From positions 1,312,001 through 1,376,000 of the forward strand of contig CM000151.3 of the NCBI GenBank assembly GCA_000004695.1: a DNA stretch of 64,000 nucleotides. The letters run 5' to 3'. The notes beneath the pieces were generated by a model, which saw nothing but the letters and a program-made list of their open reading frames with translations, did no database searches and was not told the origin of the DNA. Within the stretch, counting starts at the first letter, position 1. Every line of letters begins with the position of its first letter. Source of the stretch: Dictyostelium discoideum. Lineage: Eukaryota. The position numbers were made by a program, and so were the translations under genes. Positions 483 to 63,028 of this stretch are shown here, piece after piece.

Positions 483-3400
483 CTTTTTTTCTTTTTTTGA
501 TATATATATATATATATTATTAAAATAAAAAAATAAAATAAAAGTATTCTAAAATAAAATTTTATTTTAAGTTATTTTTATTGTAAATTTATTTCTGGAA
601 CAACACTTAAAATGTCATACATATCGAAACAGACATTTTTTGAATTAGGAGATAGTTTTGTGCATTTTGAAAATGATGTTGTTGCGACTCATAATATCTC
701 AATGGTTTCATTTACAGCATATTCATTAAACTTTGCTGACTTTTCAAATTTTCAAGGTTTAGGATTTTTCAAAATGACTTTCAATCAAGATTTTATTATT
801 TCATCAATACAAAACTATTCAACCATTAAATCAAATTCCATACAAATAGAGCACAACATAGATATTCCCTATCCATTTTATATACCTATAAACAATTCCA
901 CTCAAAGATTATCAGTATATGCACGTTTTGAAAAACCAAGTTCAATGATAGATCTCTCAAGTTTAGTTTATTCAGATTTATCTCTTTCGGGAGTAGGAGA
1001 CAAGTTCAATTTAAATGGTGAGATTCCGATAATTCCACCGCCTGGTTGCAATTTTATAATAATGCATGGTAATTTTAATGTATTTCCAAATTTTACATAT
1101 TTTACAGGTGGCTTTACTTCTTTTCAGTCAAACTTTTCAATAGCTTTGCCATCCTATTCAGGTAAAAATACAATGTTTTCAATGATAAACAATAACTTGA
1201 TTGGAACAATTGATGAATCTTGGTGCAATGTCAATTTGATAATTTATAATAATAAATTAACAGGGCATGTTTAATTATAAATTAATTCATAATATAAAAA
1301 TAAACAAAATTAACTTTATCTAACTTTTAATTTTTTTTTTACAATAGAAAAATTCCTACATGTTTTACTTGTTATTTTTCAGATCCTGCAGTTTATACTT
1401 CTTTTTCTGGTAACCAATTTACCAACTACAACCAATCAATTGGGTGCCCTGAATTTGCACCAAGATTTGAATTGATGGACATTTCAACCAAAACTTTCCG
1501 TGTAACAGGTATTAATATAGGCTTTACTCCTATGAATTGGTTATTAAACTCAGTTTACTTTCCTTATAATTCCCAAGCTATCTCAACGGGATATGAATAT
1601 GTTGTATCGTACTTATTTTCAATTATTCCTAATCCAAAATACTTTGGTATATTATTTGTGTATCCAGCACCACCACAAACAATATACTTCCCTCTTGGTG
1701 ACCAATTCCCAAATCCAACCGGAATAAAAATAACATCAAATCAATTATTAATTACAGGTGAATTATTTTCAAGTTATATGGGTTACTCAAATCAATCAGT
1801 CCAATTTGAAGAAACATCTACTAATTGTACAATAAAAGATGGTAATTTCTTTAATATAACTTGTGAATTTGTACCATCATCTATTTCTACCTTAACATAC
1901 CCAACAATCATTAAAATTAAAAATGATAATTTAACAAGAAGAGTAATTGTCAATCCGTTAATCGGACAATTAAATCAAATTCCATGTCCTAATAGTTGCG
2001 ATGATATTAGTAATAGTATTTGTGATCTTAATCAAGGTATTTGTATCAGTTGTGTTGATGATTGTGGAATATTCGGTGAATGTAATTTTCAAACCAAAAC
2101 CTGTGATTGTGATTCAAATCATCAAGGTCCAAATTGTTCTATACCATTTATACAATGTCCAACAGGTTTAAATTCTTTAATTTGTAGTAGTGTAGATTAT
2201 AAAATGTGTAACAATCAAACTGGTGTTTGTACTTGCTCTCCAAATCAACAGGGTCAAGATTGCTCATTACCATTTAAACAATGTCCAGTTGGTTTGGATT
2301 CGTTAATATGTAGTGGAGGTAATAACAATTGTAATAATCAAACTGGCATTTGTTATTGTGATAGTAAATTTACAAATGATGATTGTTCAAAACCAAATCA
2401 ATATATATCATCTGTTTCACCATCAAACACAAATGGAGGTGAGGCATCATTTTTTGGTTGGTTTGGAGATATTCATTCAAATCCATCATTATTAATTGGA
2501 AATCAACAATGTCAACCAATTACATATAATTCTTCAATCGAAATTAGATGTATTGCACCACCAGGTAATGGAGTATATGATATTACTTTTAATCAAAATT
2601 ATATCATGTATCAATTAAGAAATGGTTACAGCTATCTTGAAATTTTTAGAAATTGTCCAAACAACTGTACAAATTCAAATCAAGGAAATTGTAATACTTC
2701 AAATGGAGAATGTAATTGTATAAACAATTATTACTCATTCGATTGTAGTTTAAAAAGAAATAATAATACAGGTGGTAACAATGGTGGTAATCCATCAATC
2801 GATCCATCAACAGGTGGGACTAATATTACTGATAATCAAGTAAATTTCCAAATTTATTTTATAAATTTATTTGAAATCGATTTCAACGGTAATATTGTAA
2901 ATCAATATTCATTACAAAGTAATTGGACTCTCAATAAGACTAAAGATTCACAAGAAAATAATATTTATAAATTAACACAAATCATTCAACAATCATGTGA
3001 AATTGTAACATTGATCGAAGAAATCTCAACATCTAAACAATATTCATTTGCAGGCTCAACATTCACATTAGATGCTGGTTCAATTAAATTAACAATTTCA
3101 ATATCAAATTATATTTATAAAAGCAGTTTAAATACATTACAACTTCAATTAATATCATCAGTAGATAACGAAAATGAAGAATCAGATTGTAATATTAAAC
3201 AAGTTTCTACAAATGAAACCAATACATCCTCATTTAAATATATTAAAATTTCAAAAGATAATAGAGTCCTTCAAGGTAGATTCATTAATCAAATACTATC
3301 AGATGGAAGACCAACATATTTGTCAACTGATATTAAAAGTGATGGTAATTCAGTAATTGCAACATTAAATCTACCACATTTTGTAAATCAATCAATTATC

Positions 3401-3601
3401 GATCCAGACTTTTCAGTTTTACTCGAAAATGATTTTAAATCAGAATGTGATACTAAAAACTCTCGTGAATGGTTAATACCAGTTGCTGTTGTAATTCCTG
3501 TTCTCAGTGTTTGTTTTATTGTAGTGATTATCTATATTATTTATAGGAAACAATTTATAGAGAAACCTCTAAAAATAAAATTAGCAGCTTTAGGAAATTA
3601 A
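1..3601 (+). CDS. LRR / EGF-like / IPT-like type I transmembrane protein, tandem paralogue A (exon 1 truncated by window start)
   Basis: Five-exon model, approx exons <1..69, 137..226, 301..435, 572..1264, 1348..3601; all intron phases are 2 and consistent. Exon 4 is ORF 612..1274 (plant-type LxxNxLxGxIP leucine-rich repeats, e.g. FNLNGEIPIIPP and NKLTG|KIP across the intron). Exon 5 is ORF 1472..3601 (Cys-rich EGF-like modules CDCDSNHQGPNC, IPT/TIG-like GWFGDIHSNPSLLIGNQQCQPI..IRCIAPPGNG, C-terminal TM WLIPVAVVIPVLSVCFIVVIIYIIY plus a short tail). About 90% nt identity to copies B and C, including introns. Intron 4 donor is GC (ACAGG|GCATGT) where B and C have GT. Confidence 0.7.
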
Positions 3602-3689
3602 AAATAAATAAATAAATAAATATTAATTGGTATATATATATATTTTGATCTATTCTTTTTTTATCTATAAATCTTTATTGTGATACAAA

Positions 3690-3960
3690 ATCCTTTACAG
3701 GAGGGTTGTTTCAATGATTGAATAAATGATAAATCAGCAACGATCAATATAATCGATTAAAAGAAATTGAGTATTATTTTGGAGTTATAATTAATTTGTA
3801 ATTAATTTTTCATTTATAACCATGAGAATTTCTTTTCACTTAATAAGTAATTGGTAAATAAAACAAGTAGTACCGAATAAACAAATTGAAGAGATTAAAT
3901 TATATTCATAAAATAATTTGATAATTGATTATTACCACTACTATTACAATTTGAAATTAC
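3690..3960 (-). pseudogene. Truncated, stop-containing duplicate of the C-terminal end of the 7TM giant gene (paralogous to 14640..14900)
   Basis: About 80% nt identity to 14640..14900, which on the minus strand encodes ...FQSIIFIVADSSFIQSLQQPSYKGF of the giant gene. Here the equivalent codons read F*SIILIVADLSFIQSLKQPSCKGF (CAA to TAA stop). Similarity ends near 3960-4020. It sits about 90 bp after the stop of copy A, as the intact gene sits 80 bp after copy C. Confidence 0.6.
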
Positions 3961-4473
3961 TAATTCTGAAATTCTATTTGGCTGTAATTGTAAATTTTGA
4001 ATCATTAATTATTATATTTGAATGATTTTTTGAAAGAATACACATAAAACTATAAATCCTCTTTATATATATATAAATAATAAACTTCTTTTATTCGTCT
4101 CTCTGTTGCTAAATCGTCTTCGTTTAAGAATAATTAACTAATATATAAACATGAATAATATTATAAACAGTGTACAACAATTCATTCTTTATTATTATAA
4201 TTAATCAACACAATATAAACCTCTTTAATGATTCCCAAAGACGTCACATTTTATTTTTTTTTTTTATTAAATCACTTAAAAAAAAAAAAAAAAAAAAAAG
4301 ATAACAGAGATGGTGTAATTTGGAAAAAAAAAAAAAAAAAATTGAAAAAAAAAAAAAATTAAAAAAAAAAAACAAATATGAATAAATTAAAAATGATTTG
4401 GATTTTATTTGTTAGCTCTCGTTGGATTAAAAATTGTCCAAATATTAAAAATAAAAATAATTATTCTAGAATG

Positions 4474-4849
4474 TTCATCTAATTCTGTATATTAAATACG
4501 TTGTATCTACAACTGAAAATATTTTAATACCATCAATAATTAATGGTATTTGAGATAACCTATCTTTACTATTTATTGGATTTAAATCATTTAAAATTAA
4601 AATGTTTTTTTTTACATTATTTAATTTTTTTAATATAGTTTTATGATATTTTACGATTTGATCAATTGTTGGATAACATTTTATAAAATGTAAATATAAT
4701 AATAAATCTTTTAAATTTAAATTTATATTATATCTCTTAACTTTGTTTGGAGATAAAAAAAACTATTTTTATCAATCCAAAATAAGATTTAAACAATCTT
4801 TCATTAGAAAAAAAAAAATTTCTACATTATATTCATTTAATAATGACAT
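4474..4849 (-). CDS. Candidate small gene: a stop-free 94-codon reading frame, possibly preceded by an ATG mini-exon
   Basis: Minus-strand frame with no stop from about 4756 to 4474 (..LSPNKVKRYNINLNLKDLLLYLHFIKCYPTIDQIVKYHKTILKKLNNVKKNILILNDLNPINSKDRLSQIPLIIDGIKIFSVVDTTYLIYRIR*), which is unlikely by chance in 80% AT DNA. A possible ATG exon (MSLLNEYN, 4849..4826) joins in frame through a weak, short GTAGAA..ATAG intron of about 63 nt. No canonical start inside the long frame, so it is absent from the ORF track. Confidence 0.25.
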
Positions 4850-5793
4850 TTTCGAAATATATGTAAAAAAAAAAAAGTTAGTGTAATTTTAAAAAAAGTT
4901 GGTGTAATTTAAATTTTTTTTTTTTATTTTTATTTTTTTTTTTTTTACTAAAATGCCCAAAGCATCCTCTTGGTAACCAGCCAAAGGATTCTTATTTAAA
5001 ATCAGATTTAATTAAAAATTTAAATTTAATTGCTGATGATATTATCACCAATTTAAATTTGAATTTTCAACAAAAAAGAACTAAAACAGCTATCAAAAAG
5101 AATTAAAAAAATTAATTCTGATCTTAAAAGCCATACAATATTTGGGATGTCAGATTTCAATTGAAAAATGTTTGAAGTTTTCAATTAACAATATCCTGAA
5201 AAAAAAAAAAGAAAATTGATTTAATAGGATGGGTTGAATCCAACTAAATGTTAAACATAAATAAATAAAAAAATAATCCAAAAATAAATTTTTTATTTTT
5301 CTCATTTTTTTTTTTTTTTTTTCAGATTACGCCATCTCTATTTGGTATTTTTTTTTTTTTTATTTTTTTTTTTTTTTTCAGATTACGCCATCTCTAATAT
5401 TATTTTTATTTTAACTGTGGAGGATATTTTTTTTTAATAAAAAAAAAACCTATAGTTGGTTTTCAATATAGTATGTTGTATAAAACTTTAGTATCATTTG
5501 TGTGCAAAAAACTGGTTCATAATTAAAACAATTTTCTAACACCTCAAATCTGATTTTTTTTTTTTATGATGCGCGTTGCCAAAAAAAAAAAAAAAAAAAA
5601 GATTCACAAGTCAGAAAATAATAAAAAAAAAAAGATATTTTTTCACAGTGGATATTTTTTTTTTTTGATATTTTTTCCTTATTTTTTTTTATTTTTTTTT
5701 TTTTTTCAAAAAAATATCTAATTAAACTGTGAATTGGTTTTATTGATTTTTTTTTTTTTATTTTTTTATTTATTTTGTTTTTTTAGATAATAA

Positions 5794-6213
5794 ATGGTTA
5801 ATTTTTTTATTTGTTTTTTGATGTGTTCAATGTTTTTTTGTTATATTAATTGCATTGAACCTCCAGTAGATGAATATAATTGTTTCTTTGATTTTATTAC
5901 AAAAATAAACCTTTTTTCATTCTATCCAAATACCAATGCTACTCACTATAATTTTTGCACAAATAATATTGTATGTGATGGAGTTACTGGAACAATAAAA
6001 GAGTATGTATTTTATTTTATTTTATTTTATTTTATTTTATTTTATTTTATTTTATTTTATTTTATTTTATTTTATTTTTTTTTTTTTTTTAACTAACTTT
6101 ATTAAATTTATTTTAGTATTACTATATTAAACACCTTAACTAGTGGATATAATAACCAATCAATATTACCAACAGACTTAGCGTGTCTTCCTAATTTTAA
6201 TAGAATGTAGGTA

Positions 6214-6262
<49 letters not shown>

Positions 6263-9200
6263 CCTAATAATTATACAGATATTTCCAAAATCTAGTTATA
6301 TCAAAAGAACTTGTATTTTATCAATTCCCACAAAAAATTAATGAAGTAACATATGATTATGGAGACTATCCTTGCAGTCCGATTGATCAAGAGCTACCTG
6401 GAACATTTGCCTTGTGAGTATTGAAATATTTTTTTTTTTTTGACTACTAAAATTATTTATTAAAAAAAAAAAAAAATAATATTCTAAAATAATATTTTAT
6501 TTTTAGTTATTTTTATTGTAAAACTATTTCGGGAACAACAATAAAAATATCACACATAATGAAACCTTCAATTTTTTATTTTAGAAATAGTTTTGTACAT
6601 TTCGAAAATGATGTTGTTGCAACTCATAATATCTCAACGATTTCATTTTCAGTGTTTTCATTAAGCTTTGCAGATTTTTCTAATTTTATAAGTTTGGGAA
6701 TTTTCCAAATAACTTTCAATCAAGATTTTGTTATTTCATCAATACAAAACTTTTCAACCATTAAATCAAATTCCATCTCAATAGATCACAACCAAAATAA
6801 TTTCTATCCATTTTATGTACCAATAAATAACTCCACTCAATCATTATCAATAGCGGCACTATTTGAAAAACCAAATTCAATGATAGATCTTTCAAGTTAT
6901 GGTTTTAAACATTTACTTTTATCGAAAGTTGGAGAAAAGTTTAATTTAAATGGTGAGATTCCGATAATTCCACCCACTAGTAGCAATTTTTTAATAAACT
7001 TAGGCAATTTTAATGTATTTCCAAACTTAACAAAATTTTCTGGGACTTTTAGTTCATCTGGGTCTAACTTTTCAATTGCTTTACCATCACATTCAGGTAA
7101 AAGTACAATGGTGTCTTTAGTAAATAATAACTTTTTTGGAACAATTGATGAATCTTGGTGCAATGCCAATTTGATAGTCACCGGTAATAAATTAACAGGG
7201 TATGTTTAAATTAATAAAAAAATAATCCATATAAATCTAAATATATCTAACTTTATAATTTTTTTTTTTTATTAATAGAAAAATACCTACATGTTTTACC
7301 TGTTATTTTTCAGATATCTCATTTTTTAATTATTTTTCTGGTAACCAATTTACAAACTACAACCAATCAATTGGGTGTTCTGAATTTGCACCAAGATTTG
7401 AATTGTTGGACATTTCAACCAATACTTTCCGTGTAACAGGTATTAATATAGGGTTTAACCCAAGATATTGGTTATTAAACTCAGTTGACTTTCTAAATAG
7501 TTACCAAGCTATCTCAACGGGATATGAATATGTTGTATCGTATATATTTGCAAGAATACCTAATCCAAAATACTTTAATGTTACATTTGTTCATCCAGCA
7601 CCATCACAAACAATATACTTCCCTCTTGGTGATCAATTACCAAATCCAACCGGTATTAAAATAACATCAAATCAATTAATAATTACAGGTGAATTATTTT
7701 CAAGTTATATGGGTTACTCAAATCAATCAGTCCAATTTGAAGAATCATCTACTAATTGTACAATAAAAGATGGTAATTTCTTTAATATAACTTGTGAATT
7801 TGTACCATCATCTATTTCTACCTTAACATACCCAACAATCATTAAAATTAAAAATGATAATTTAATAAGAAGAGTAATTGTCAATCCATTAATTGGACAA
7901 TTAAATCAAATTCCATGTCCCAATAATTGTGATGATCTTATTAATAAAATCTGTGATCTTTCTAAGGGTATCTGTGTCTGGAAAATTTGTAAAAATGATT
8001 GTGGAATTTTTGGCGAATGTAATGATCAAACTGGAGAGTGTGATTGTGATTCAAATCATCAAGGTCCAAACTGTTCTATACCATTTATACAATGCCCAAC
8101 AGGTTCAAATTCTTTAATTTGTAGTAGTGTAGATTATAATATGTGTAACAATCAAACTGGTATTTGTACTTGCTCAACAAATCAACAAGGTCAAAATTGT
8201 TCATTACCATTTAAACAATGTCCAGTTGGTTTGGATTCCTTAATATGCAGTGGAGGTAATAGCAATTGTAATAATCAAACAGGAGTTTGTTATTGTGATT
8301 CAAATCATCAAGGTTCAACTTGTTCAAAACCATTTAAACAATGTCCAACGGGTCTAAATTCTTTAATTTGTAGTAGTGTAGATAATAATATGTGTAATAA
8401 TCAAACTGGTGTTTGTACATGTTCTCCTAGTCAACAAGGTCAAGATTGCTCATTACCATTTAAGCAATGCCCAGTTGGTTTGGATTCCTTAATATGCAGT
8501 GGAGGTAATAACAATTGTAAAAATCAAACAGGTATTTGTTATTGTGATTCAAATCATCAAGACTCTGATTGCTCATTACCATTTAAACAATGTCCAGTTG
8601 GTTTGGATTCTTTAATTTGTAGTGGGGGTGATAACAACTGTAATAATCAAACTGGTGTTTGTACATGTTCTCCAAATCATCAAGACTCTGATTGCTCATT
8701 ACCATTTAAACAATGTCCAGTTGGTTTAGATTCTTTAATTTGTAGTGGGGGTAATAACAATTGTAATAATCAAACTGGAATTTGTTATTGTGATAGTAAA
8801 TTTACAAATGATAACTGCTCAAAACCAAATCAATATATATCATCTGTTTCACCATCGACCACAAATGGAGGTGAAGCATCATTTTTTGGTTGGTTTGGAG
8901 ATATTCATTCAAATCCATCATTATTAATTGGAGCTCAACAATGTCAACCAATTACATATAATTCTTCAATCGAAATTAGATGTATTGCACCACCAGGTAA
9001 TGGAGTATATGATATTACTTTTAATCAAAATGATATCATGTATCAATTAAGAAATGGTTACAGCTATCTTGAAATTTTTAGAAATTGCCCAAACAATTGT
9101 ACAAATTCAAATCAAGGAAATTGCAATACTTCAAATGGAGAATGTAATTGTATAAACAATTATTACTCATTCGATTGTAGTTTAAAAAGAAATAATAATA

Positions 9201-10042
9201 CAGGTGGTAACAATGGTGGTAATCCATCAATCGATCCATCAACAGGTGGAACTAATATTACTGATAATCAAGTAAATTTCCAAATTTATTTTAAAAATTT
9301 ATTTGAAATCGATTTCAACGGTAATATTGTAAATCAATATTCATTACAAAGTAATTGGACTCTCAATAAAACTAAAGATTCACAAGAAAATAATATTTAT
9401 AAATTGACTCAAATCATTCAACAATCATGTGAAATTGTAACATTGATCGAAGAAATCTCAACATATAAACAATATTCATTTGCAGGCTCAACATTCACAT
9501 TAGATGCTGGTTCAATTAAATTAACAATTTCAATATCAAATTATATTTATAAAAGCAGTTTAAATACATTACAACTTCAATTAATATCATCAGTAGATAA
9601 CGAAAATGAAGAATCAGATTGTAATATTAAACAAGTTTCAACAAATGAAACCAATACATCCTCATTTAAATATATTAAAATTTCAAAAGATAATAGAGTC
9701 CTTCAAGGTAGATTCATTAATCAAATACTATCAGATGGAAGACCAACATATTTGTCAACTGATATTAAAAGTGATGGTAATTCAGTAATTGCAACATTAA
9801 ATCTACCACATTTTGTAAATCAATCAATTATCGATCCAGACTTTTCAGTTTTACTCGAAACTGATTTTAAATCAGAATGTGACAATAAAAACTCTCGTAA
9901 ATGGTTAATACCAGTTGCTGTGACAGTCCCAATCGTTGGTCTTTGTTGTATTGGAGTGATTGTATATTTTTTATATAGAAAACATTTTATTGAGATACCT
10001 CTAAAAGTTAAATTAGAAAGTATTGGAAATAAAATAAAATAA
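5794..10042 (+). CDS. LRR / EGF-like / IPT-like type I transmembrane protein, tandem paralogue B (expanded EGF-module array, about 1296 aa)
   Basis: Exons approx 5794..6002, 6117..6206, 6279..6413, 6507..7199, 7279..10042. Donors GTATGT/GTAGGT/GTGAGT/GTATGT, acceptors after T-rich ..AG. Exon lengths 209/90/135/693 are identical to copy C. Exon 1 encodes a signal peptide (MVNFFICFLMCSMFFCYINC) plus a Cys-containing N-terminus. The last exon has six 41-aa C-x-C EGF-like modules versus two in A and C, then IPT-like, an extra EGF, a roughly 300-aa membrane-proximal domain and a TM (WLIPVAVTVPIVGLCCIGVIVYFLY). The ORF track called 7403 with a TTG start and the frame is open upstream of it, which supports splicing from exon 4. 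Confidence 0.75.
8060..8830 (+). repeat. Coding tandem array of about 123-bp (41-aa) EGF-like module units, six units in copy B
   Basis: Alternating units CSxPFxQCPTGxNSLICSSVDxNMCNNQTGxCTCSxxQQGQx and CSLPFKQCPVGLDSLICSGGxxNCxNQTGxCYCDSNHQxSx, each beginning CS[ILK]PF[IK]QCP, repeated head to tail. Copies A and C have one pair. Confidence 0.8.
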
Positions 10043-10779
10043 TATTAAATAAAATAAAAATAAATAAACAAATAAAATGATAAATTGTCACTATTATTTT
10101 ATTTTTTATATTATTTGTAAATATTATTTAAAAGATTAAGTTTTTATTTTTTTTATTTTTTTTTATTTTTTTTTTAGGTTTAAAAAATTAATTTTTTTTA
10201 TAATAATAATTTGGTCACTAAATGAAATTTCCAAACCTACCTGAAAAGAATATTCTAAACCAAAAAGAAAATTCTTATAATGTTAATCAAAACATTCAAA
10301 TCTGGCAAAAAAAAAAAAAAAAAAATGGAAAAAAAAATGAAAAAATAGCAAAGATTAAATTTTAATTTTTTTTTTTTAACAAAATTAATTATTAGACGTA
10401 AAGATGACGACTGAACATTTGATTTTTTTTTTAAAAAAGATCTTTGAGGCTACCCAAAAAAAAATGAAGAGGTAAAGTAGATATTAAAAAAAAAAAAATC
10501 CTAAAAAAAAAAAAATATCCAAAAATAAAATCAAAAATGTTTATTTCCCAATAAATATCTCAAATCATTTGTTCTTTTTTTTCAAAAATGAGATTACCAT
10601 ATCATTTCAAATAAAACCAATTTTATTATCAAAATAAATTATGGCAGTTATTAAAAAAATAAATGGATATGTTTTTTTACTTACCGAAGATTTTTTTTTA
10701 AATTGATAGTAAAAAAAAAAAAATCTTAATTTTTTTAACATTTTCCATTTTCCATTTTTTTTATAATAATTAGATTTTA

Positions 10780-13700
10780 ATGGGGAAATTTATTATTTGT
10801 TTTTTGTTGTGTTCAATGTTTTTTTGTTATGTTAATTGCATTGAACCTCCAATAGATGAATATAATTGTTTCCTAAATTTTATTACAAAAATAAACCTTT
10901 TTTCATTATTTCCAAAAACCAATGCCACTCACTATGATTTTTGCACAGGATATATAAAGTGTGATGGAGTTACTGGAACAATAAAAGAGTATGTATTTTA
11001 TTATTTTATTTTTTTTATATTATTTTAACTAACTTTATTAAATTTTTTATTAAAGTGTAACTATTTTAAACACTTTAAAAAGTGGATATAATAACCAATC
11101 GATTTTAGCAACAGACTTAGTGTGCCTTCCTAATTTAAATAGAATGTATGTGTATTTAAAACAATGAAATAAAATAAAATTGCTATTAAACATGTTTATT
11201 ATACTTTTATAGAAATCTCCAAAATCTAAATATATCTAAACAGCTTGTTTTTTATGAATTCCCACAAAAAATTGGTCAAGTAACATATAATTATGGAGAC
11301 TATGAGTGTAGTCCAATTGATCAAAAACTACCTGAAATTCCATCTTTGTAAGTTTGGCAAAATCCTTTTTTTTTCTTTTTTTTAAAAATTAAAATTATGG
11401 TATTCTAAAATAATATTTTATTTTTAGTTATTTTTATTGTAAATCCATTTCTGGAACAACATTTAAAATCTCATACATAACAAAACAGACAATCTTTTAT
11501 TTTGGAGATAGTTTTGTACATTTCGAAAATGATGTTCTTGAGACTCATAATATCTCAATGGTTTCATTTACAGCATATTCGTTAAACTTTGCTGACTTTT
11601 CAAATTTTAAAGGTTTGGGATTTTTCAAGATGACTTTCAATCAAGATTTTATTATTTCATCAATACAAAACTATTCAACCATTAAATCAAATTCCATACA
11701 AATTGAGCACGACACAGATTTTCCCTATCCATTTTATATACCAATAAATAATTTCACTCAAAGATTATCAGTATATGCACGTTTTGAAAAACCAAGTTCA
11801 ATGATAGATCTCTCAAGTTTAGTTTATTCGGATTTATCTCTTTCGGGAGTAGGCGACAAGTTTAATTTTAATGGTGAGATTCCGATAATTCCACCACCTG
11901 GTTGCAATTTTATAATAATGCATGGTAATTTTAATGTATTTCCAAATTTTACATATTTTACAGGTGGCTTTACTTCTTTTCAGTCAAACTTTTCAATATC
12001 CTTGCCATCCTATTCAGGTAAAAATACAATGTTTTCAATGATAAACAATAACTTGATTGGAACAATTGATGAATCTTGGTGCAATGTCAATTTGATAATT
12101 TATAATAATAAATTAACAGGGTATGTTTAATTAAAAATTAAAATAAAAATTAATTATATTAAAAAATAAATAAATATAAAAATAAACAAATTTAACTTTA
12201 TCTAACTTTTTTTTAATAATAGAAAAATACCTACATGTTTTACTTGTTATTTTTCGGATCCTGCGGTTTATACTTCTTTTTCTGGTAACCAATTTACAAA
12301 CTACAACCAATCAATTGGGTGTTCTGAATTTGCACCAAGATTTGAATTGATGGATTTTTCAACTAAAACTTTCCGTGTAACAGGTATTAATATAGGCTTT
12401 ACTCCTATGAATTGGTTATTAAACTCAGTTTACTTTCCTTATAGTTTCCAAGATATCTCAACGGGATATGAATATGTTGTGTCGTATTTATTTTCAATAA
12501 TACCTAATCCAAAATACTTTAATGTTACATTTGCTCATCCAGAACCATCACAAACAATATACTTCCCTCTTGGTGATCAATTACCAAATCCAACCGGTAT
12601 TAAAATAACATCAAATCAATTATTAATTACAGGTGAATTATTTTCAAGTTATATGGGTTACTCAAATCAATCAGTCCAATTTGAAGAATCATCTACTAAT
12701 TGTACAATAAAATATGGTAATTTCTTTAATATAACTTGTGAATTTGTACCATCATCTATTTCTACCTTAACATACCCAACAATCATTAAACTTAAAAATG
12801 ATAATTTAATAAGAAGAGTTATTGTCAATCCATTAATTGGACAACTAAATCAAATTCCATGTCCAAATAATTGCGATGATCTTAATAATAGTATTTGTGA
12901 TCTTAATCAAGGTATTTGTATCAGTTGTGTAGATGATTGTGGAATATTCGGTGAATGTAATTTTCGAACCAGAACCTGTGATTGTGATTCAAATCATCAA
13001 GGTCCAAATTGTTCTATACCATTTATACAATGTCCAACAGGTTTAAATTCTTTAATTTGTAGTAGTGTAGATTATAATATGTGTAACAATAAAACTGGTG
13101 TTTGTACTTGTTCTCCAAATCAACAAGGTCAAGATTGTTCATTACCATTTAAACAATGCCCAGTTGGTTTGTATTCGTTAATATGCAGTGGAGGTAATAA
13201 CAATTGTAACAATCAAACAGGTATTTGTTATTGTGATAGTAAATTTATAAATGATGATTGTTCAAAACCAAATCAATATATATCATCTGTTTCACCATCA
13301 ACCTCAAATGGAGGTGAAGCATCATTTTTTGGTTGGTTTGGAGATATTCATTCAAATCCATCATTATTAATTGGAAATCAACAATGTCAACCAATTACAT
13401 ATAATTCTTCAATCGAAATTAGATGTATTGCACCACCAGGTAATGGAGTATATGATATTACTTTTAATCAAAATGATATCATGTATCAATTAAGAAATGG
13501 TTACAGCTATCTTGAAATTTTTAAAAAATGTCCCAACAATTGTACAAATTCAAATCAAGGAAATTGTAATACTTCAAATGGAGAATGTAATTGTATAAAC
13601 AATTATTACTCATTCGATTGTAGTTTAAAAAGAAATAATAATACAGGTGGTAACAATGGTGGTAATCCATCAATCGATCCATCAACAGGTGGGACTAATA

Positions 13701-14485
13701 TTACTGATAATCAAGTAAATTTCCAAATTTATTTTAAAAATTTATTTGAAATCGATTTCAACGGTAATATTGTAAATCAATATTCATTACAAAGTAATTG
13801 GACTCTCAATAAGACTAAAGATTCACAAGAAAATAATATTTATAAATTAACACAAATCATTGAAATATCATGTGAAATTGTAACATTGATCGAAGAAATC
13901 TCAACATCTAAACAATATTCATTTGCAGGCTCAACATTCACATTAGATGCTGGTTCAATTAAATTAACAATTTCAATATCAAATTATATTTATAAAAGCA
14001 GTTTAAATACATTACAACTTCAATTAATATCATCAGTAGATAACGAAAATGAAGAATCAGATTGTAATATTAAACAAGTTTCAACAAATGAAACCAATAC
14101 ATCCTCATTTAAATATATTAAAATTTCAAAAGATAATAGAGTCCTTCAAGGTAGATTCATTAATCAAATACTATCAGATGGAAGACCAACATATTTGTCA
14201 ACTGATATTAAAAGTGATGGTAATTCAGTAATTGCAACATTAAATCTACCACATTTTGTAAATCAATCAATTATCGATCCAGACTTTTCAGTTTTACTTG
14301 AAAATGATTTTAAATCTGAGTGTGATACTTACAACTCTCGTAAATGGTTAATACCAGTTGCTGTGGCAGTTCCAATCTTTGGTGTTTGTTGTATTGGAGT
14401 GATTATATATTATTTTTATAGAAAACATTTTATTGAAATACCACTAAAAATAAAATTAGGAATTATTGGGAATAAAATAAAATAA
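10780..14485 (+). CDS. LRR / EGF-like / IPT-like type I transmembrane protein, tandem paralogue C (about 1129 aa)
   Basis: Exons approx 10780..10988, 11056..11145, 11213..11347, 11428..12120, 12223..14485. Same architecture and phases as copy B. Signal peptide MGKFIICFLLCSMFFCYVNC. TM WLIPVAVAVPIFGVCCIGVIIYYFY. Stop at 14483..14485. Confidence 0.75.
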
Positions 14486-49679: not shown

Positions 49680-52559
49680 TCAAATAAGATTTTAATTAAA
49701 TTACCAAAATTAAAAAGATTATTAAACTTATATTTTTGTGGTGAATCAATTGATAATGAAGTTTTGAAATTAATTATAAATTTATATAAAATTGATAGTT
49801 TAAAAGAATTAATTGATGAAAATGAAATTGAAAGTTTTGAAAAAATTAATATAAAAAAATTTATTGAAATAAATGATATTTTCATTCAAAAGGTTTTAGT
49901 AGATTTAAAAATTGTTGAAAAATCAAAAGAAACTTTTAATTTTGGTGGTGATGGTAGTGGTGGTGATTATTTAAATGATAAAACTATTGAAGAACTTTTA
50001 ATTATGATTGAAATTATTTATAAAATTGGTAAAGGATTAAGTGATTCTGATGTAAATAATTTAATGAATACAAAAATTATTAATAGGGCATCATCATCAT
50101 TGGAGAGTAAAGAGAGTTTTAAACAGTTAAAGAAATTAATAGTTTTAGAGAGTAATTCATATTATTTAGAATTCTTTGAAACTTATGGTGAACCTGTATT
50201 AAATCAAGGTTATAATTATTATACCAATTTTTATAATTATTCTTTTCAAACTTTTAATCCACAAGGACTTCAATCTTTAATTGATTCAGCATTTGATTAT
50301 ACTCATTGGATTTATCCAATTTCAAAAAAAGATGATCCTATTAATTTTAAGAAATTAATTAAAATAGTCTTAAATGATCAACAAAGAGTTGTTGATTTTT
50401 TTAAATTATTTTATAATCAATCTAAATCTAATAATTTTAAATTTTTAAAACTACAACAACAACCACCACCACCACAAGAAGGAGAAAAAGAAGAAACCAT
50501 TGAAATAAAATGTAGAAATATAAAAGAAATATTTGATATAGTGGTTTCTTTATTAAATAGAAATATATGGGAGCAGTTAATGAATATTAGAGGTTTTCCA
50601 ATATCATTACTAACTTCAATACCACAAAATATAAGTAAAAATAAAAGAAAGAAATTTTCATTTGAAGATTCAATTTTTTATATTGAAAAAATTATAAAAT
50701 CAATTGAAATCATTTCAATCACTCATAAAAGACAATTATCAATATTACCATTCAATTTTAAAACTACAAAACATATTGATTACTTTTTCAAAACTATTGA
50801 AATTTTCACTTTTAAATGTAAATATTTAGATTTCAATAATGATCAAGAATTAATTGATTATTTTTGTGATAATATTCCAATATCAGCTATACCACTTTTA
50901 TTTGATGATGATGATGATGATGATAATATAACTACCGACAGTCAAAATATTCTTAAACAAATCTTAATTAATAAACAATTTAAGTATTGGTTTAAATTAT
51001 GTAATATTTTAGAAATTAAAAAGTTTGAATCATTAATTTATAATTTAAGTTCAAAAAGAAATTGGATTAAAAAAGATATTGAAACTGAAAAAATATCACT
51101 TTTATTAAAGTTTTTATTTGAACAATCAGAATTTTCAAAATTTTTTAATAAAAATAAAAGTAATGGTTCTAGTAGTGGTAGTAGTACAGAAAATGATTTA
51201 AATGAATCAATTATTATTGAATTTTTTCAAGATGTTATTTTTCATTTAATTGATAGGGAAATTAAAATTTCACAACTTGATACATTAATTAATATTGATT
51301 TTAATTATCAACCATTTGTATCATTCCTATTTGCATTAACTTCAATTGGGTATGATTATTTTGAAATTTCATTCATAATATTAAATCAAATTCAAAATAA
51401 ATTTTCAATAATTTCAAATCAGTTAACGTCAATTGATATTTTTGAAAGAATATCAGAAGAAATTTATCAAGATGAAGATTATAATCAAGATATTTATGAT
51501 GAAGAACATTTAATTTCATCAATTGATATGTGTTGGTTAATAAATAGTTTCCTAATGATTATACCAAGTGATTTTTATAAAGCTTGCTCCTCTTTATTTT
51601 CAAGACTTTTCTTATTTCTTTCAAGATGTAAAGATATTAATTTGGGAATATTGGATTCTATTAGATTACTATTAGAGAATAAATCAATTGAATTAAATAT
51701 TGAACCAAAAAAATTAATTGATATTTATCTTTCAATAAAGTCAATTAAGTTATCAGAATATCAAAAAAATAGAACCATTAAAGAAGGAACAGTTGATTTT
51801 AACTTTAAACTTGATTTTATTAAAAATTCAAGCGTTGAAATACTATTGGAATTATTAATTAGTGATAATATAAATCAACTATATAATAATAGTGAAATAG
51901 TTGTACGATATTATTCTATCACTCAAGATTTAATTTATTTATTACAATTGAATGAAATCAATTTATATTATAGGGTTTTGGATTTACATTATTATTTTAT
52001 TGGTAAAAACAATGGTCGTTTAAATGAATCTGATATTAAATATATAGAATCTGCTATTTTAAAAAGCCTTCAACTTTCAATTAAACTATTTAGATCAGAA
52101 AGACAACTTGTTAGATTCATTGAAAATTGTAATATTACTATCGAAAATATACTATATCATTCTTTAATGAATAATAGATTGGATTTCATTAAGTTTTTAA
52201 ATGATAATTACCACCCAATTCAACCAATAAAATATACTTCAATATTTCTTATATTTTCTTCAAATCATTTGGATATTGCAAAGTATTTACTTTCTAATCT
52301 TAAAGATAAAATTCTTATTGAAAAAATTGAATGTAAAACTCTTTTCAATCTTTTATTTAGAGGTGGTTTTTTAGAAATGTTTCAACTTTTATTAGACCAC
52401 TATCCTAATCTTATTAGTTTAGATCAAGATTCTTTCAATTTTGATGAATTTATATCTTTTCAAATTTGTAAACCTGCTATATTATACTACTATAATAATT
52501 TACCAATTAAGTGTAAAGTTTTAAAAAAGGTACTAGAAGAGTCTATTTTAAAACAATAA
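49017..52559 (+). CDS. Hypothetical 1180-aa Asn/Lys/Ile-rich protein (possible weak ankyrin-like C-terminal repeats)
   Basis: Single long ORF with two polyN tracts (49040..49090, 49590..49680), a D7 acidic run, and C-terminal segments such as HSLMNNRLDFIKFLNDNYHP / SSNHLDIAKYLLSNLK / LLFRGGFLEMFQLLLDHYPNLISLD. No confidently recognisable catalytic domain. Confidence 0.55.
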
Positions 52560-52679
52560 AAAATAAAGTTTAAATTGTTTCCTTTCAATGTAAAATTTTT
52601 ATTTTAATAATTTCTAAGTATTGTTTTTCTTTTTTTTTTTTTTTTTTTTCTTCCTTTTATTAATTTTTTTTAAAAGATA

Positions 52680-53478
52680 TCCAGTATTTAAAGGAGATTA
52701 TGTTTGAAAGCGCTGATCCTGGAATTCAATAAACTCTGAAAGTTTATTTTCTAAAATTAATAATTTGTTTAAGGAATTCATTTAGGTCTTTAAATTTACT
52801 CGGATCTTTTGAAAGAGTTATTATAATTTTTTTTTTGTGGTTAATTTCAGAGGCTCTAATTTTTTCGAGTTGAGTTGATGCATTGATTGCGATTATAATG
52901 TAGTATAGTTCCTATTTGAATGTTTGCAATTAGTTTTATTCCTTCTATTATGAGTATTGGTGTGATAGAAATTGATTTTCGTCCCGGAATAGGCATCCTC
53001 AATTATATTTCCACTTTTCTCACCTATTAAGGATCTGTGTGTAGTAATTTTCTCTTTGTTAATAGGGAACCTCTTATATTGTTATTGTATAGAATTGTTC
53101 TTGCTATTGCTTCGATCACCAGTAAAAAGTTTTTTTTTTTTATAATTGATAAATCAATGTTTATCCATTAAAAAGTAATTGATAGTTTTATTTATAGATT
53201 TTAATTTTTTAAAAGTAAAGAGGTTATTCCTTTTTTACTTTGATTTTTCAAATATATGGAATTTTAATTTTAAAATGAATTTTAATAGAGTAGTTGTTAT
53301 TGTTATTATCAATTTTTAGATATCTACACTTATGTATTTTATTTGAACTCCAGAATCAGTTCTTCCCAACATTATATCCTTGCAGGTTAGTTTTCTTAAT
53401 TTAATTTTTAGTTAAAGGAAATCTTTTTGGTCTTTTGCTCGGTTCTTTTGAAATAGTAAATTAAAAAAAAAATAAAAA
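52680..53478. mobile_element. Non-coding island of lower AT content about 100 bp downstream of the tRNA 3' end; possible truncated TRE3-type (tRNA-gene-targeted non-LTR) retroelement remnant
   Basis: An 800-bp stretch with composition unlike the surrounding intergenic DNA (GCGCTGATCCTGGAATTC, GTCCCGGAATAGGCATCCTC). No ORF of 60 aa or more on either strand. An A-run (TTAAAAAAAAAATAAAAA, 53461..53478) at the tRNA-proximal edge. Internal 22-bp direct repeats TACTCGGATCTTTTGAAAGAGT (52796) and TGCTCGGTTCTTTTGAAATAGT (53434). Its position relative to the tRNA matches the known TRE3 insertion preference. Confidence 0.3.
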
Positions 53479-53533
53479 TTACTTTTATATTCTAGTTTAT
53501 AATTTTATATAAAATGCTAAACCTTGTTATTGG

Positions 53534-53545
53534 GAATCGAACCTG
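53534..53545 (-). promoter_or_regulatory. External B box (ex-B box) downstream of tRNA-Pro
   Basis: The reverse complement reads GGTTCGATTCCC, a second copy of the pol III B-box consensus GGTTCGANTCC, about 30 nt beyond the tRNA 3' end. This arrangement is typical of Dictyostelium tRNA genes. Confidence 0.6.
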
Positions 53546-53572: not shown

Positions 53573-53643
53573 GGGGAGATCCGAGAATCGAACTCAGGAC
53601 GCTACCACCCAAAGGTAGCATTATACCACTTAACTAATCTCCC
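53573..53643 (-). tRNA. tRNA-Pro (anticodon UGG), 71 nt, no intron
   Basis: Reverse complement of 53573..53643: GGGAGAT TA GTTA AGTGGTA TAAT G CTACC TTTGGGT GGTAG CGTC CTGAG TTCGATT CTCGG ATCTCCC C. 7-bp acceptor stem, D stem GTTA/TAAT (one G-U), anticodon loop TTTGGGT (U33, anticodon TGG, G37), T arm CTGAG/TTCGATT/CTCGG, discriminator C. A-box and B-box-like sequences are present. Confidence 0.85.
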
Positions 53644-54580
53644 TTTTTGATGAAATTGAAGATTTATAGTAAAAAAAATTCCAAAAGTATTATTTTATCA
53701 CTTTTAAAATATACTTAAGTGGTAAAATAGATTATTTGAGTGGTATAATCTCCCTTTTTGATCAAATTGAAGTTTTTTTAAAAATAATATCCCAATTTTT
53801 TCCTTTTTGAAAGAATGGAAGGTTTATTGAAAAAAAATATCCCAGTTTACTAATTCTCCTTGATTATTTTAAACTTTATTATATCATAAAATGGAATTTC
53901 ATATTCCTTACCTCCCAATACTACATTAATACGAAAATTACACTAAAAACTACAACAACAACAACTACAACAACAACTACAACAACAACTACAGAAACAA
54001 TCAATCAAAAAACATCTTCCTAATATTTTTAAAAATAAAAACTGTATAAAAAATTGAGGCCTTTAGAATTATAAACCCAAGGAGTGGTAATTAACCAATG
54101 AATTATTCATTTTAAAAAAAAAAAACTTTAAAAGAATCCTAATAATAAAAAAGCTATAACAAAACTAGGGCCTAATAGTTTTTAAAAACTCTATATGAGA
54201 ATCAACTTACAATTGCATTACCCAATCCAAAAAAAAAAATGAATGTATTAAATAAGTTAATAAAATCTTTTTGTATTTTTTATTTTTTTATTAAATATCA
54301 GGATAGAAATGATTTAAATTTATTTAATGAAAAATCAATTCTTTGTATATAAAAAAAAAAAAAAAAGATTTTTTAACTGAAAATGAGATCAAATTTTGAT
54401 CGGGTTACAAAACAATTTTCAAAGTATTTTAATTAAATTTTTTTTTTTTTTTTTTTTTTTTTCCTTTTTTTTTTTTTTTTTTTTAATCAGTTAAAAAAAA
54501 AAAAAAATCAACATTTTATTATTTTTTTTTCCAACTTTTTTTCATAATACAAATAATAATATAACAATAATTAATAACAA

Positions 54581-61617: not shown

Positions 61618-62599
61618 ATGGGGTATGTCACACTCACTCATTATCACTCCACAATGTCACTATGTCTCTTTTTATATCAATACAAATAATAGATAAATGA
61701 TAAATGATAAAGATTAATTGAAAATTGTTAATAGATAATCATAATAAAGTTGTGTGGTAAAAAAGAGATAATCACACTCACCACTCAATCAATCATCACA
61801 AACACACACGCATCATGTATCACACATATATCATATCATAACACATACTCGCACGACCAATTTTAAACTCTACATCATACTAATATGAAAACAATAATTG
61901 AAAAAATAGTAAGCCAAATGGTTTAAAAACAGCTAGAAAGCTTAGAAATCACAGAAGAGTCCAAAGATGGAACGATAAACTCTACAAAAAGGCTCATTTC
62001 GGTACTGCTCTTAAAGGTTTGTATTTTAATGAAGAGAGTGAAAATTAAGAGAAAATCAAAACAATAAACTAACAACTTTTTTTTATTTCAAATATAGCCA
62101 ATCCATTCGGTGGTGCCTCCCATGCCTCTGGTATCGTCGTAAGCAGACTTGGTATCGAAGGTATGTTTTAAAGAAACAAAGAAACAAAAAATAATACAAA
62201 AACTAAAAATCACAAATACTAATTCTTTTTTTTATTATTTTTAAAAATACAGCCAAACAAGTAAGGATTTATTTTATTTAGGTTTAGGTTAAATTTTTTA
62301 ATATATTTTTAGGGGTTTATACTAATTTTTAATTATCTATTTTATTACAGCCAAATTCTGCCATCCGTAAATGTGTCAGAGTTCAATTAAAAAAGAACGG
62401 TAAAAAGATCACTGCTTTCGTTCCAAACGATGGTTGTTTAAATTACATCCAAGAAAATGACAAAGTTTTAGTTGCTGGTCTCGGTCGTTCAGGTCACTCT
62501 GTCGGTGATATTCCAGGCGTCCGTTTCAAGGTTGTCAAAGTTTCATCCGTCTCCCTCATTGCCATCTACCGTGGTATCAAAGATAAACCAAACGTATAA
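61618..62599 (+). CDS. rps23: 40S ribosomal protein S23 (uS12), five exons including an 8-nt micro-exon, 143 aa
   Basis: Exons approx 61618..61622 (ATGGG, donor GTATGT), 61910..62016 ([35 protein letters not shown]), 62098..62161 ([21 protein letters not shown]), micro-exon 62253..62260 (CCAAACAA, giving AKQ; flanked by ..ATACAG| and |GTAAGG), 62351..62599 ([82 protein letters not shown]). Matches eukaryotic RPS23 throughout. Only the model with the micro-exon keeps the frame. Confidence 0.85.
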
Positions 62600-63028
62600 A
62601 TAAATATTGGGATAATAAATCTTTTTTAAAAAAAAAAGTAAATTCATTTTTTAAATATGGTCATTCATTTATATATTTATTTTTCCATCACTTTTTTTTA
62701 AAAAAATTAATATGTTTTTTTATTTTAAAAAATAAAAGAATTATTATAATAATAATACAAATAATTTTTAAACTTGAATATTTGAATTTTTTATTTATTT
62801 TAAATTCAATTTGCCAATTTTTTTAAAAAAAAAAAAAGAAAAAGAAAAAAAAAGTCTTTTTTTTTTTTATTTTTTTAAAATTAAATTAATAAACACCACC
62901 CCGAATACAAACAAATAATTTGTTTTTTTTATTTTATTTTTTTAAAATTTTATTTTTTTTTCATCCATATAAACATATAATATACATATATATTAAATTT
63001 TTAATAATAATAATAATAATAATAAATA

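Follow-up and report, generated by a model that had tools for sequence, protein, structure and literature searches.

What kind of DNA lies between a tRNA gene and the end of its protein-coding neighbour in Dictyostelium discoideum, and did a retroelement put it there? We address this question for positions 52680-53478 (the island hereafter) of a 64-kb stretch of genomic sequence, which we call the window and which consists throughout of Dictyostelium nuclear DNA with a GC content of 23.5%. A first-pass annotation had described these positions as a compositionally distinct, non-coding segment lying where TRE3 retrotransposons insert, and had offered a structured non-coding RNA (ncRNA) as the alternative. 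The observation as a whole proved partly correct, and we tentatively favor, with less than even confidence, the reading that the island is an old, inert and decayed relic of a 5'-truncated retroposition event made by TRE3-type machinery.

The genes near the locus encode a huntingtin homologue, a TRAF-like protein, an EF-hand protein, a RhoGEF, ribosomal protein S23 and a short-chain dehydrogenase. The island sits in a spacer of ~1 kb between the gene for tRNA-Pro and a plus-strand ORF of 1180 codons whose stop codon is at 52559; the two genes are convergent, and a spacer of ~1 kb is long for convergent Dictyostelium genes. Look-ups of this 1180-aa ORF, of the RhoGEF ORF and of a 46-aa ORF within the island gave no record. 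Elsewhere in the window, the plus strand of 612-14485 carries a two-ORF unit (~190-220 aa, then ~710-880 aa) three times in a row, and these units resemble a gene family expanded by tandem duplication. The rps23 gene (61618-62600) has an apparent 8-nt micro-exon (CCAAACAA), and its first intron, unusually rich in CA, has the highest non-ORF GC of the window.

Two further genomes were available for comparison at this locus. One (L002, NCBI assembly GCA_054883475.1) is 99.1% identical to the window over 11 kb and matches it at 100% identity over 52976-53530. The other, which we call the sister genome (L005, assembly GCA_054859355.1, JBTAPG010000035.1), is ~96% identical in coding sequence and 60-90% identical in non-coding sequence, with many indels; despite being labelled D. 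discoideum it is much farther from the window than the 99.1% strain, and by these divergences may represent a deep lineage or a cryptic species. In the annotation that NCBI gives for GCA_054883475.1 (L002 1-1048), the gene upstream of the island is extended to a 1233-aa product that ends at window position 54023. As reconstructed, this model needs an intron of ~1.3 kb with the island and the tRNA gene inside it, and its last exon (window 53841-54023) is an (ACA)n / ACAACAACAACT repeat specifying poly-Thr; in the sister genome the annotation of the same gene ends at the normal stop codon, and the (ACA)n / ACAACAACAACT repeat is largely missing. The 1233-aa model is probably a prediction artefact.

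The tRNA-Pro(UGG) gene is the sole tRNA gene of the 64-kb window according to both ARAGORN and Rfam. It is followed directly by a TTTT Pol III terminator and, 30 nt downstream of its 3' end, by an external B box (GGTTCGATTCC); such ex-B boxes, described for about 80% of the tRNA genes of D. discoideum, are a landmark for TRE3 targeting (PMC5911963). Its other flank has an organization of its own. Three direct repeats of ~50 nt (53635-53684, 53746-53795 and 53795-53844, with identities of 82% and 70%) lie upstream, the first of them spanning the first 9 nt of the tRNA together with the 5' flank, and an inverted partial copy of the 5' part of the tRNA is found at 53729-53757 (against 53611-53640). 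This upstream repeat region corresponds to the landing zone of TRE5 and DGLT-A, and it differs by indels in the sister genome (42 gapped positions in 53700-53799).

That the island is non-coding is borne out, no ORF longer than 48 aa being present in any frame of 52680-53478, but its compositional distinctness holds only for part of its length. A markedly higher GC had been claimed over 800 bp; the core, 52700-53125, does reach 29.3% GC, ~2 SD above the mean of the non-ORF 400-nt windows of the whole stretch (18.8 ± 5.0%), among which equally high values come only from the rps23 intron/exon and tRNA regions, and the adjacent coding gene, at ~20% GC, lies below it. The full segment, however, has 24.9% GC against 23.5% for the window and is heterogeneous, with 15.6% GC in 53126-53330 and 27% in 53331-53462. 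Nor is it free of homopolymers, as had been stated, since it includes the T10 and T12 runs of Table 1 and three T6 runs. Runs of T or A of at least 10 nt occur 4-5 times per kb of non-coding DNA here. The minus strand here is A-rich (47% A), and the sense strands of non-LTR elements are usually A-rich.

The location is one where TRE3 elements are expected. They typically insert 40-150 bp downstream of tRNA genes (PMC5911963), with 14-305 bp seen (PMC5006619, Table 1), and in the transcriptional orientation of the tRNA gene (PMC5911963). The placement of the island beyond tRNA-Pro was described correctly: its tRNA-side edge (53478) is 95 bp from the 3' end of the tRNA, and the repeat copy DR2 and the 5' end of the body introduced below are 107-116 and 190 nt from it, all within the 14-305 bp seen for TRE3 (PMC5006619). 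Since TRE3 elements are oriented like the tRNA, however, their oligo(A) tail must face away from it, and the oligo(A) run on the tRNA side, which had been put forward as a TRE3 landmark, is at the wrong end (PMC5911963). The run itself is real, but the sister genome has A11 at the equivalent place, so that it is not obviously the tail of an element; and because that A11 stands beside different sequence, we read the A10 of the window as ancestral flank. As a general caution, finding oligo(A) beside a Dictyostelium tRNA gene does not suffice to identify an element tail.

The one strong feature within the segment is a pair of direct repeats (Table 1). The two copies, DR1 and DR2, are ~77% identical with one 5-nt gap, and their alignment score of 61 compares with 27.5 ± 3.2, and a maximum of 40, in 300 dinucleotide shuffles. 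On the minus strand the tRNA is followed in turn by the ex-B box, T10, DR2, a body of 547 nt, A10, DR1, 90 nt of flank, A20 and the end of the neighbouring gene. Judged from the sequence, the succession DR2-body-A10-DR1 follows the canonical arrangement of a poly(A)-tailed retroposed insert and its target-site duplication, and we infer from it that the repeat is a target-site duplication and the A-run a tail. Only the minus orientation fits an insertion, because on the plus strand there is no A-run adjoining DR2. For a T run of at least 10 nt to begin within any particular 12-nt slot of the local non-coding DNA, the chance is ~0.05. A target-site duplication around the whole of 52630-53478 was also looked for in both orientations, and was rejected with just 8-10 nt A/T-rich matches. 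The distal flank of DR1 is either the original spacer downstream of the tRNA or an older relic.

Table 1. Coordinates of the features at the tRNA-Pro locus, in window positions
Feature	Position	Strand	Basis and state in the sister genome (L005)
Distal flank, moderately GC-rich, between T20 (52630-52649) and DR1	52650-52740	no strand	91-95% identity to L005
DR1, tRNA-distal direct-repeat copy, putative downstream target-site duplication	52741-52818 (weakly 52737-52826)	minus	alignment; present in L005
A10 on minus strand (T10 on plus), putative poly(A) tail	52827-52836	minus	between body and DR1; degenerate T7GCTTT in L005
Body between repeats, 547 nt, non-coding, A-rich on minus	52837-53383	minus	composition; no homologues, Pfam match or periodicity; folding z-scores ~0
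Body, GC-rich part	52837-53125		
Body, AT-rich part with T12 (53130-53141)	53126-53330		
Body, part with 27% GC	53331-53383		
Segment of ~396 bp missing from L005	52999-53394	no strand	comparison with L005 and L002
DR2, tRNA-proximal direct-repeat copy, putative target-site duplication, upstream in element sense	53384-53457 (weakly 53381-53466)	minus	alignment
A10 on plus strand (T10 on the tRNA strand), taken for ancestral flank rather than a tail	53463-53472	plus	A11 with different neighbouring sequence in L005
External B box (GGTTCGATTCC on tRNA strand)	53533-53543	minus	read from sequence; conserved in L005
tRNA-Pro (anticodon UGG)	53573-53643	minus	ARAGORN; Rfam tRNA, 57 bits; identical in L005

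Comparison with the sister genome gives the structure a relative age. That genome shares 52655-52998 with the window at 86-95% identity, with indels of 1, 2 and 15 nt, frame-breaking ones among them, and carries DR1, the T-run in degenerate form and the distal 160 nt (the 3' part) of the body; after the gap of ~396 bp there follow ~100 poorly alignable nt and then the conserved ex-B box and tRNA. The 23% divergence between DR1 and DR2 exceeds the non-coding divergence between the window and the sister genome, and this, together with DR1, the run and the 3' end of the body being shared by the sister genome, indicates that the putative insertion predates the split of the two lineages. Loss of the ~396 bp in the sister lineage is favored over a gain in the window because the repeat-body-repeat structure is continuous across the segment. 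The indels and the missing ~396 bp further imply that the sequence is under no constraint and is dispensable.

The repeat could also have arisen without any mobile element. The island would then be an ordinary, fast-evolving spacer between convergent genes, in which 75-90 nt were duplicated locally at the DNA level by slippage, unequal exchange or repair synthesis, the A/T runs being the usual intergenic ones and the raised GC a local fluctuation. Such runs are indeed very frequent here, and the many indels between the window and the sister genome fit a spacer of this kind. The ~50-nt repeats at 53635, 53746 and 53795 upstream of the tRNA show local duplication too, and the locus is thus prone to such events. 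A plain spacer would moreover be expected to look as the island does in the searches described below, with no similarity to proteins, to Pfam or Rfam families, or to loci with DGLT-A, Skipper or DIRS-1, and with a single copy in the Dictyostelium DNA sampled (the 64-kb window and ~150 kb of other loci). We nevertheless consider this account somewhat unlikely: the core, with its 29% GC, stands ~2 SD over the non-coding DNA and above the adjacent coding gene, the spacer is long for convergent genes, and the repeat, the A-run and the orientation must all be coincidences, when one retroposition event explains all three.

If the body came from a retroelement transcript or a cellular gene, traces of a coding sequence might survive on the minus strand, and one frame there is indeed stop-poor: over 293 codons it has 12 stops, where the other two minus frames have 27-32 and the plus frames 18-28. 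A frame as open was found in 60 of 5000 dinucleotide shuffles, and within the body the 5 stops in 181 codons equal the number expected of a real ORF decayed by 15%. A pseudogene, whether a decayed minus-strand ORF of a cellular gene or a retroelement ORF diverged past recognition, would account for these counts. The remaining coding tests speak otherwise. Searched exhaustively with HMMER against 1.84 billion representative proteins, the most open minus frame had no match at E <= 0.001, no Pfam family matched any of the six frames of the island, and a word-indexed search with the three minus frames found no homologue among the best 8000 candidates of 5.8 billion proteins, a weak negative. Base composition varies little between codon positions (island, p = 0.84; body, p = 0.16) and first positions show no excess of G, and we therefore take the openness of the frame to be mostly chance. 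Codon periodicity survived in almost all host or transposon ORFs that were decayed by 15% in silico, and in just 0-7% of the samples of transposon ORFs so decayed was p as high as that of the body (p > 0.16). There are, in addition, 1- and 2-nt indels among the differences from the sister genome. A decayed ORF was accordingly rejected as the main reading of the island, with no homologue, Pfam match or codon periodicity behind the stop-poor frame, and we consider a pseudogene quite unlikely. Two further coding candidates were also set aside: reverse-transcriptase motifs seen by eye in the minus frames went unsupported by Pfam and the protein searches and were an over-reading, and a nuclear copy of mitochondrial genes, suggested by hydrophobic, T-rich plus frames, gave no Pfam match and no rRNA match.

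The structured ncRNA named as an alternative to TRE3 is not supported either. A functional non-coding RNA gene, or a regulatory element tied to the tRNA gene, would explain a GC content nearer to that of RNA genes than of spacer, and the 86-95% identity of 52655-52998 to the sister genome is somewhat above that of several other spacers. Rfam at E <= 1, however, found the tRNA alone and no other family; the DUSE-type upstream sequence element of Dictyostelium ncRNA genes is absent near the island; and the folding energy of the GC-rich core equals that of shuffled sequences on both strands (z = 0.07 and -0.14). A structured ncRNA gene was rejected on these three tests, with the 396 bp also missing from the sister genome. 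With those bases dispensable there and the retained part broken by indels, we regard any functional RNA or regulatory element here as very unlikely.

Neither the 64-kb window nor ~150 kb from other Dictyostelium loci yielded a second copy of the island, a sample far too small to decide whether it is repeated. BLASTN against three loci with such elements beside tRNA genes, L001 and L004 (both with DGLT-A) and L006 (with a Skipper-2-like element), gave no match to the island, and a locus with Skipper-1 and DIRS-1 (L013) showed no similarity. Around six tRNA genes in other Dictyostelium loci no non-LTR elements were found, and a scan of metagenomes with a 19-mer of the island returned chance matches alone, in GC-rich bacterial contigs. 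Another Dictyostelium locus has a repeated structure of its own: in D. dimigraforme (L014, 3213-6192 and 17009-21159) an ORF pair (~260 aa and ~620 aa) occurs twice within 20 kb and adjoins an LTR-element integrase fragment, has no Pfam match on record, and may be an unclassified two-ORF repeat.

These searches also bear on the idea that the island is a fragment of some other class of mobile element, such as a DNA transposon, a thug-type element or an unclassified repeat, or of organellar or extrachromosomal DNA, be it mitochondrial or rDNA. A GC content of 27-30%, unlike that of the local non-coding DNA, and the lack of coding capacity would suit the non-coding parts of such sources. Set against this, the island has no terminal inverted repeats beyond low-complexity pairings of T-runs with A-runs, it matches none of the loci with DGLT-A (including its LTR), Skipper-1, Skipper-2 or DIRS-1, and it gives no organellar rRNA, tRNA or protein signal. 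We consider such an origin unlikely.

The history that we tentatively prefer would then run as follows. A 5'-truncated, poly(A)-tailed RNA copy (the body with its A10, its sense strand being the minus strand, which is the tRNA strand) would have been inserted ~110-190 bp downstream of tRNA-Pro by target-primed reverse transcription, duplicating ~75-90 nt of target into DR1 and DR2. The copy would have drifted neutrally, its flanking repeats now being 23% diverged, the sister lineage would have lost ~396 bp of it, and what remains would be a relic without present function. Retroposition is supported by a repeat far above chance, an A10 where a minus-sense tail must lie, the tRNA orientation, the distance from the tRNA, the GC of the core and the A-rich minus strand; we count against it the lack of a coding remnant, the long duplication, the frequency of A/T runs here and the single copy in the DNA sampled. 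The island is probably an ordinary relic, non-coding, unstructured and unconstrained, for which TRE3 is the candidate family by layout.

As a relic of a tRNA-targeted retroelement it would count as one more among the ~150 landings of TRE3 type known from D. discoideum and would carry little weight alone, although it illustrates how such a relic may decay, by drift and by a 396-bp loss in a sister lineage. Its wider relevance would lie in the long flanking duplication and the lack of an ORF2 remnant, which leave room for a non-autonomous passenger RNA and so bear on how tRNA genes are targeted.

Among the systems known in Dictyostelium and elsewhere, the tRNA-associated LTR elements resemble the island in their association with tRNA genes. 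Skipper-2 (formerly DGLT-P), with LTRs of 208 bp, also lands downstream, at 8-23 bp from tRNA genes, and DGLT-A lands 13-33 bp upstream; the distance and side of the island fit neither Skipper-2 nor the solo LTRs of DGLT-A / H3R, the loci with these elements show no similarity to it, and an A-run beside a repeat copy, as in the island, is not an LTR feature. Another comparison is with processed pseudogenes and SINE-like non-autonomous retroposons, which are moved in trans by LINE enzymes, as by L1 in mammals. A non-coding body, a 3' A-run and a target duplication are, by this analogy, what target-primed reverse transcription of a non-element RNA generically yields. The island differs in having no known parent gene or family and a single copy in the DNA sampled, and we know of no SINE-like or other non-autonomous retroposon family described in Dictyostelium. 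That the body is a non-coding, non-autonomous poly(A) retroposon that used the TRE3 integration machinery and made unusually long target-site duplications of ~80 nt is highly improbable; were it true, the targeting of tRNA genes could be borrowed in trans.

The comparison with TRE3 itself (TRE3-A, -B, -C and -D, non-LTR elements of the L1 clade, known here by their published description) is mixed. Target-site duplications are 12-16 bp in TRE5-A and usually 7-20 bp in L1, and the ~75-90 nt flanking the body are much longer than expected for the class. TRE3 elements have an oligo(A) end and short UTRs, most of the ~150 copies are truncated, and 61% of D. discoideum tRNA genes have a TRE (PMC5911963, PMC5006619); a 5'-truncated copy of 550-800 bp would be expected to keep part of ORF2, because the UTRs are short, and yet the island has no detectable remnant of ORF1 or of ORF2 (endonuclease, reverse transcriptase, zinc finger). 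The lack of ORF2 remnants and the long duplication argue against a canonical TRE3 3' end. The TRE3 families comprise 11-67 copies each. Of the TRE3 interpretation first proposed, then, the tail side was wrong and a coding remnant is lacking, but the position stands and the direct repeats with their A-run are insertion-like. As in TRE3, the distance downstream of the tRNA is right, the A10 on the tRNA strand adjoins the distal repeat copy (although such runs are common here), the minus strand is A-rich in keeping with the tRNA orientation, and the insert, flanked on both sides by a putative target duplication, would be 5'-truncated with its A-run at the tRNA-distal end. If the island was retroposed, we infer that TRE3 enzymes were the agent: by analogy with described insertions the machinery would most likely belong to the TRE3 group of non-LTR retrotransposons, since these are the elements known to land at this place in the orientation of the tRNA.
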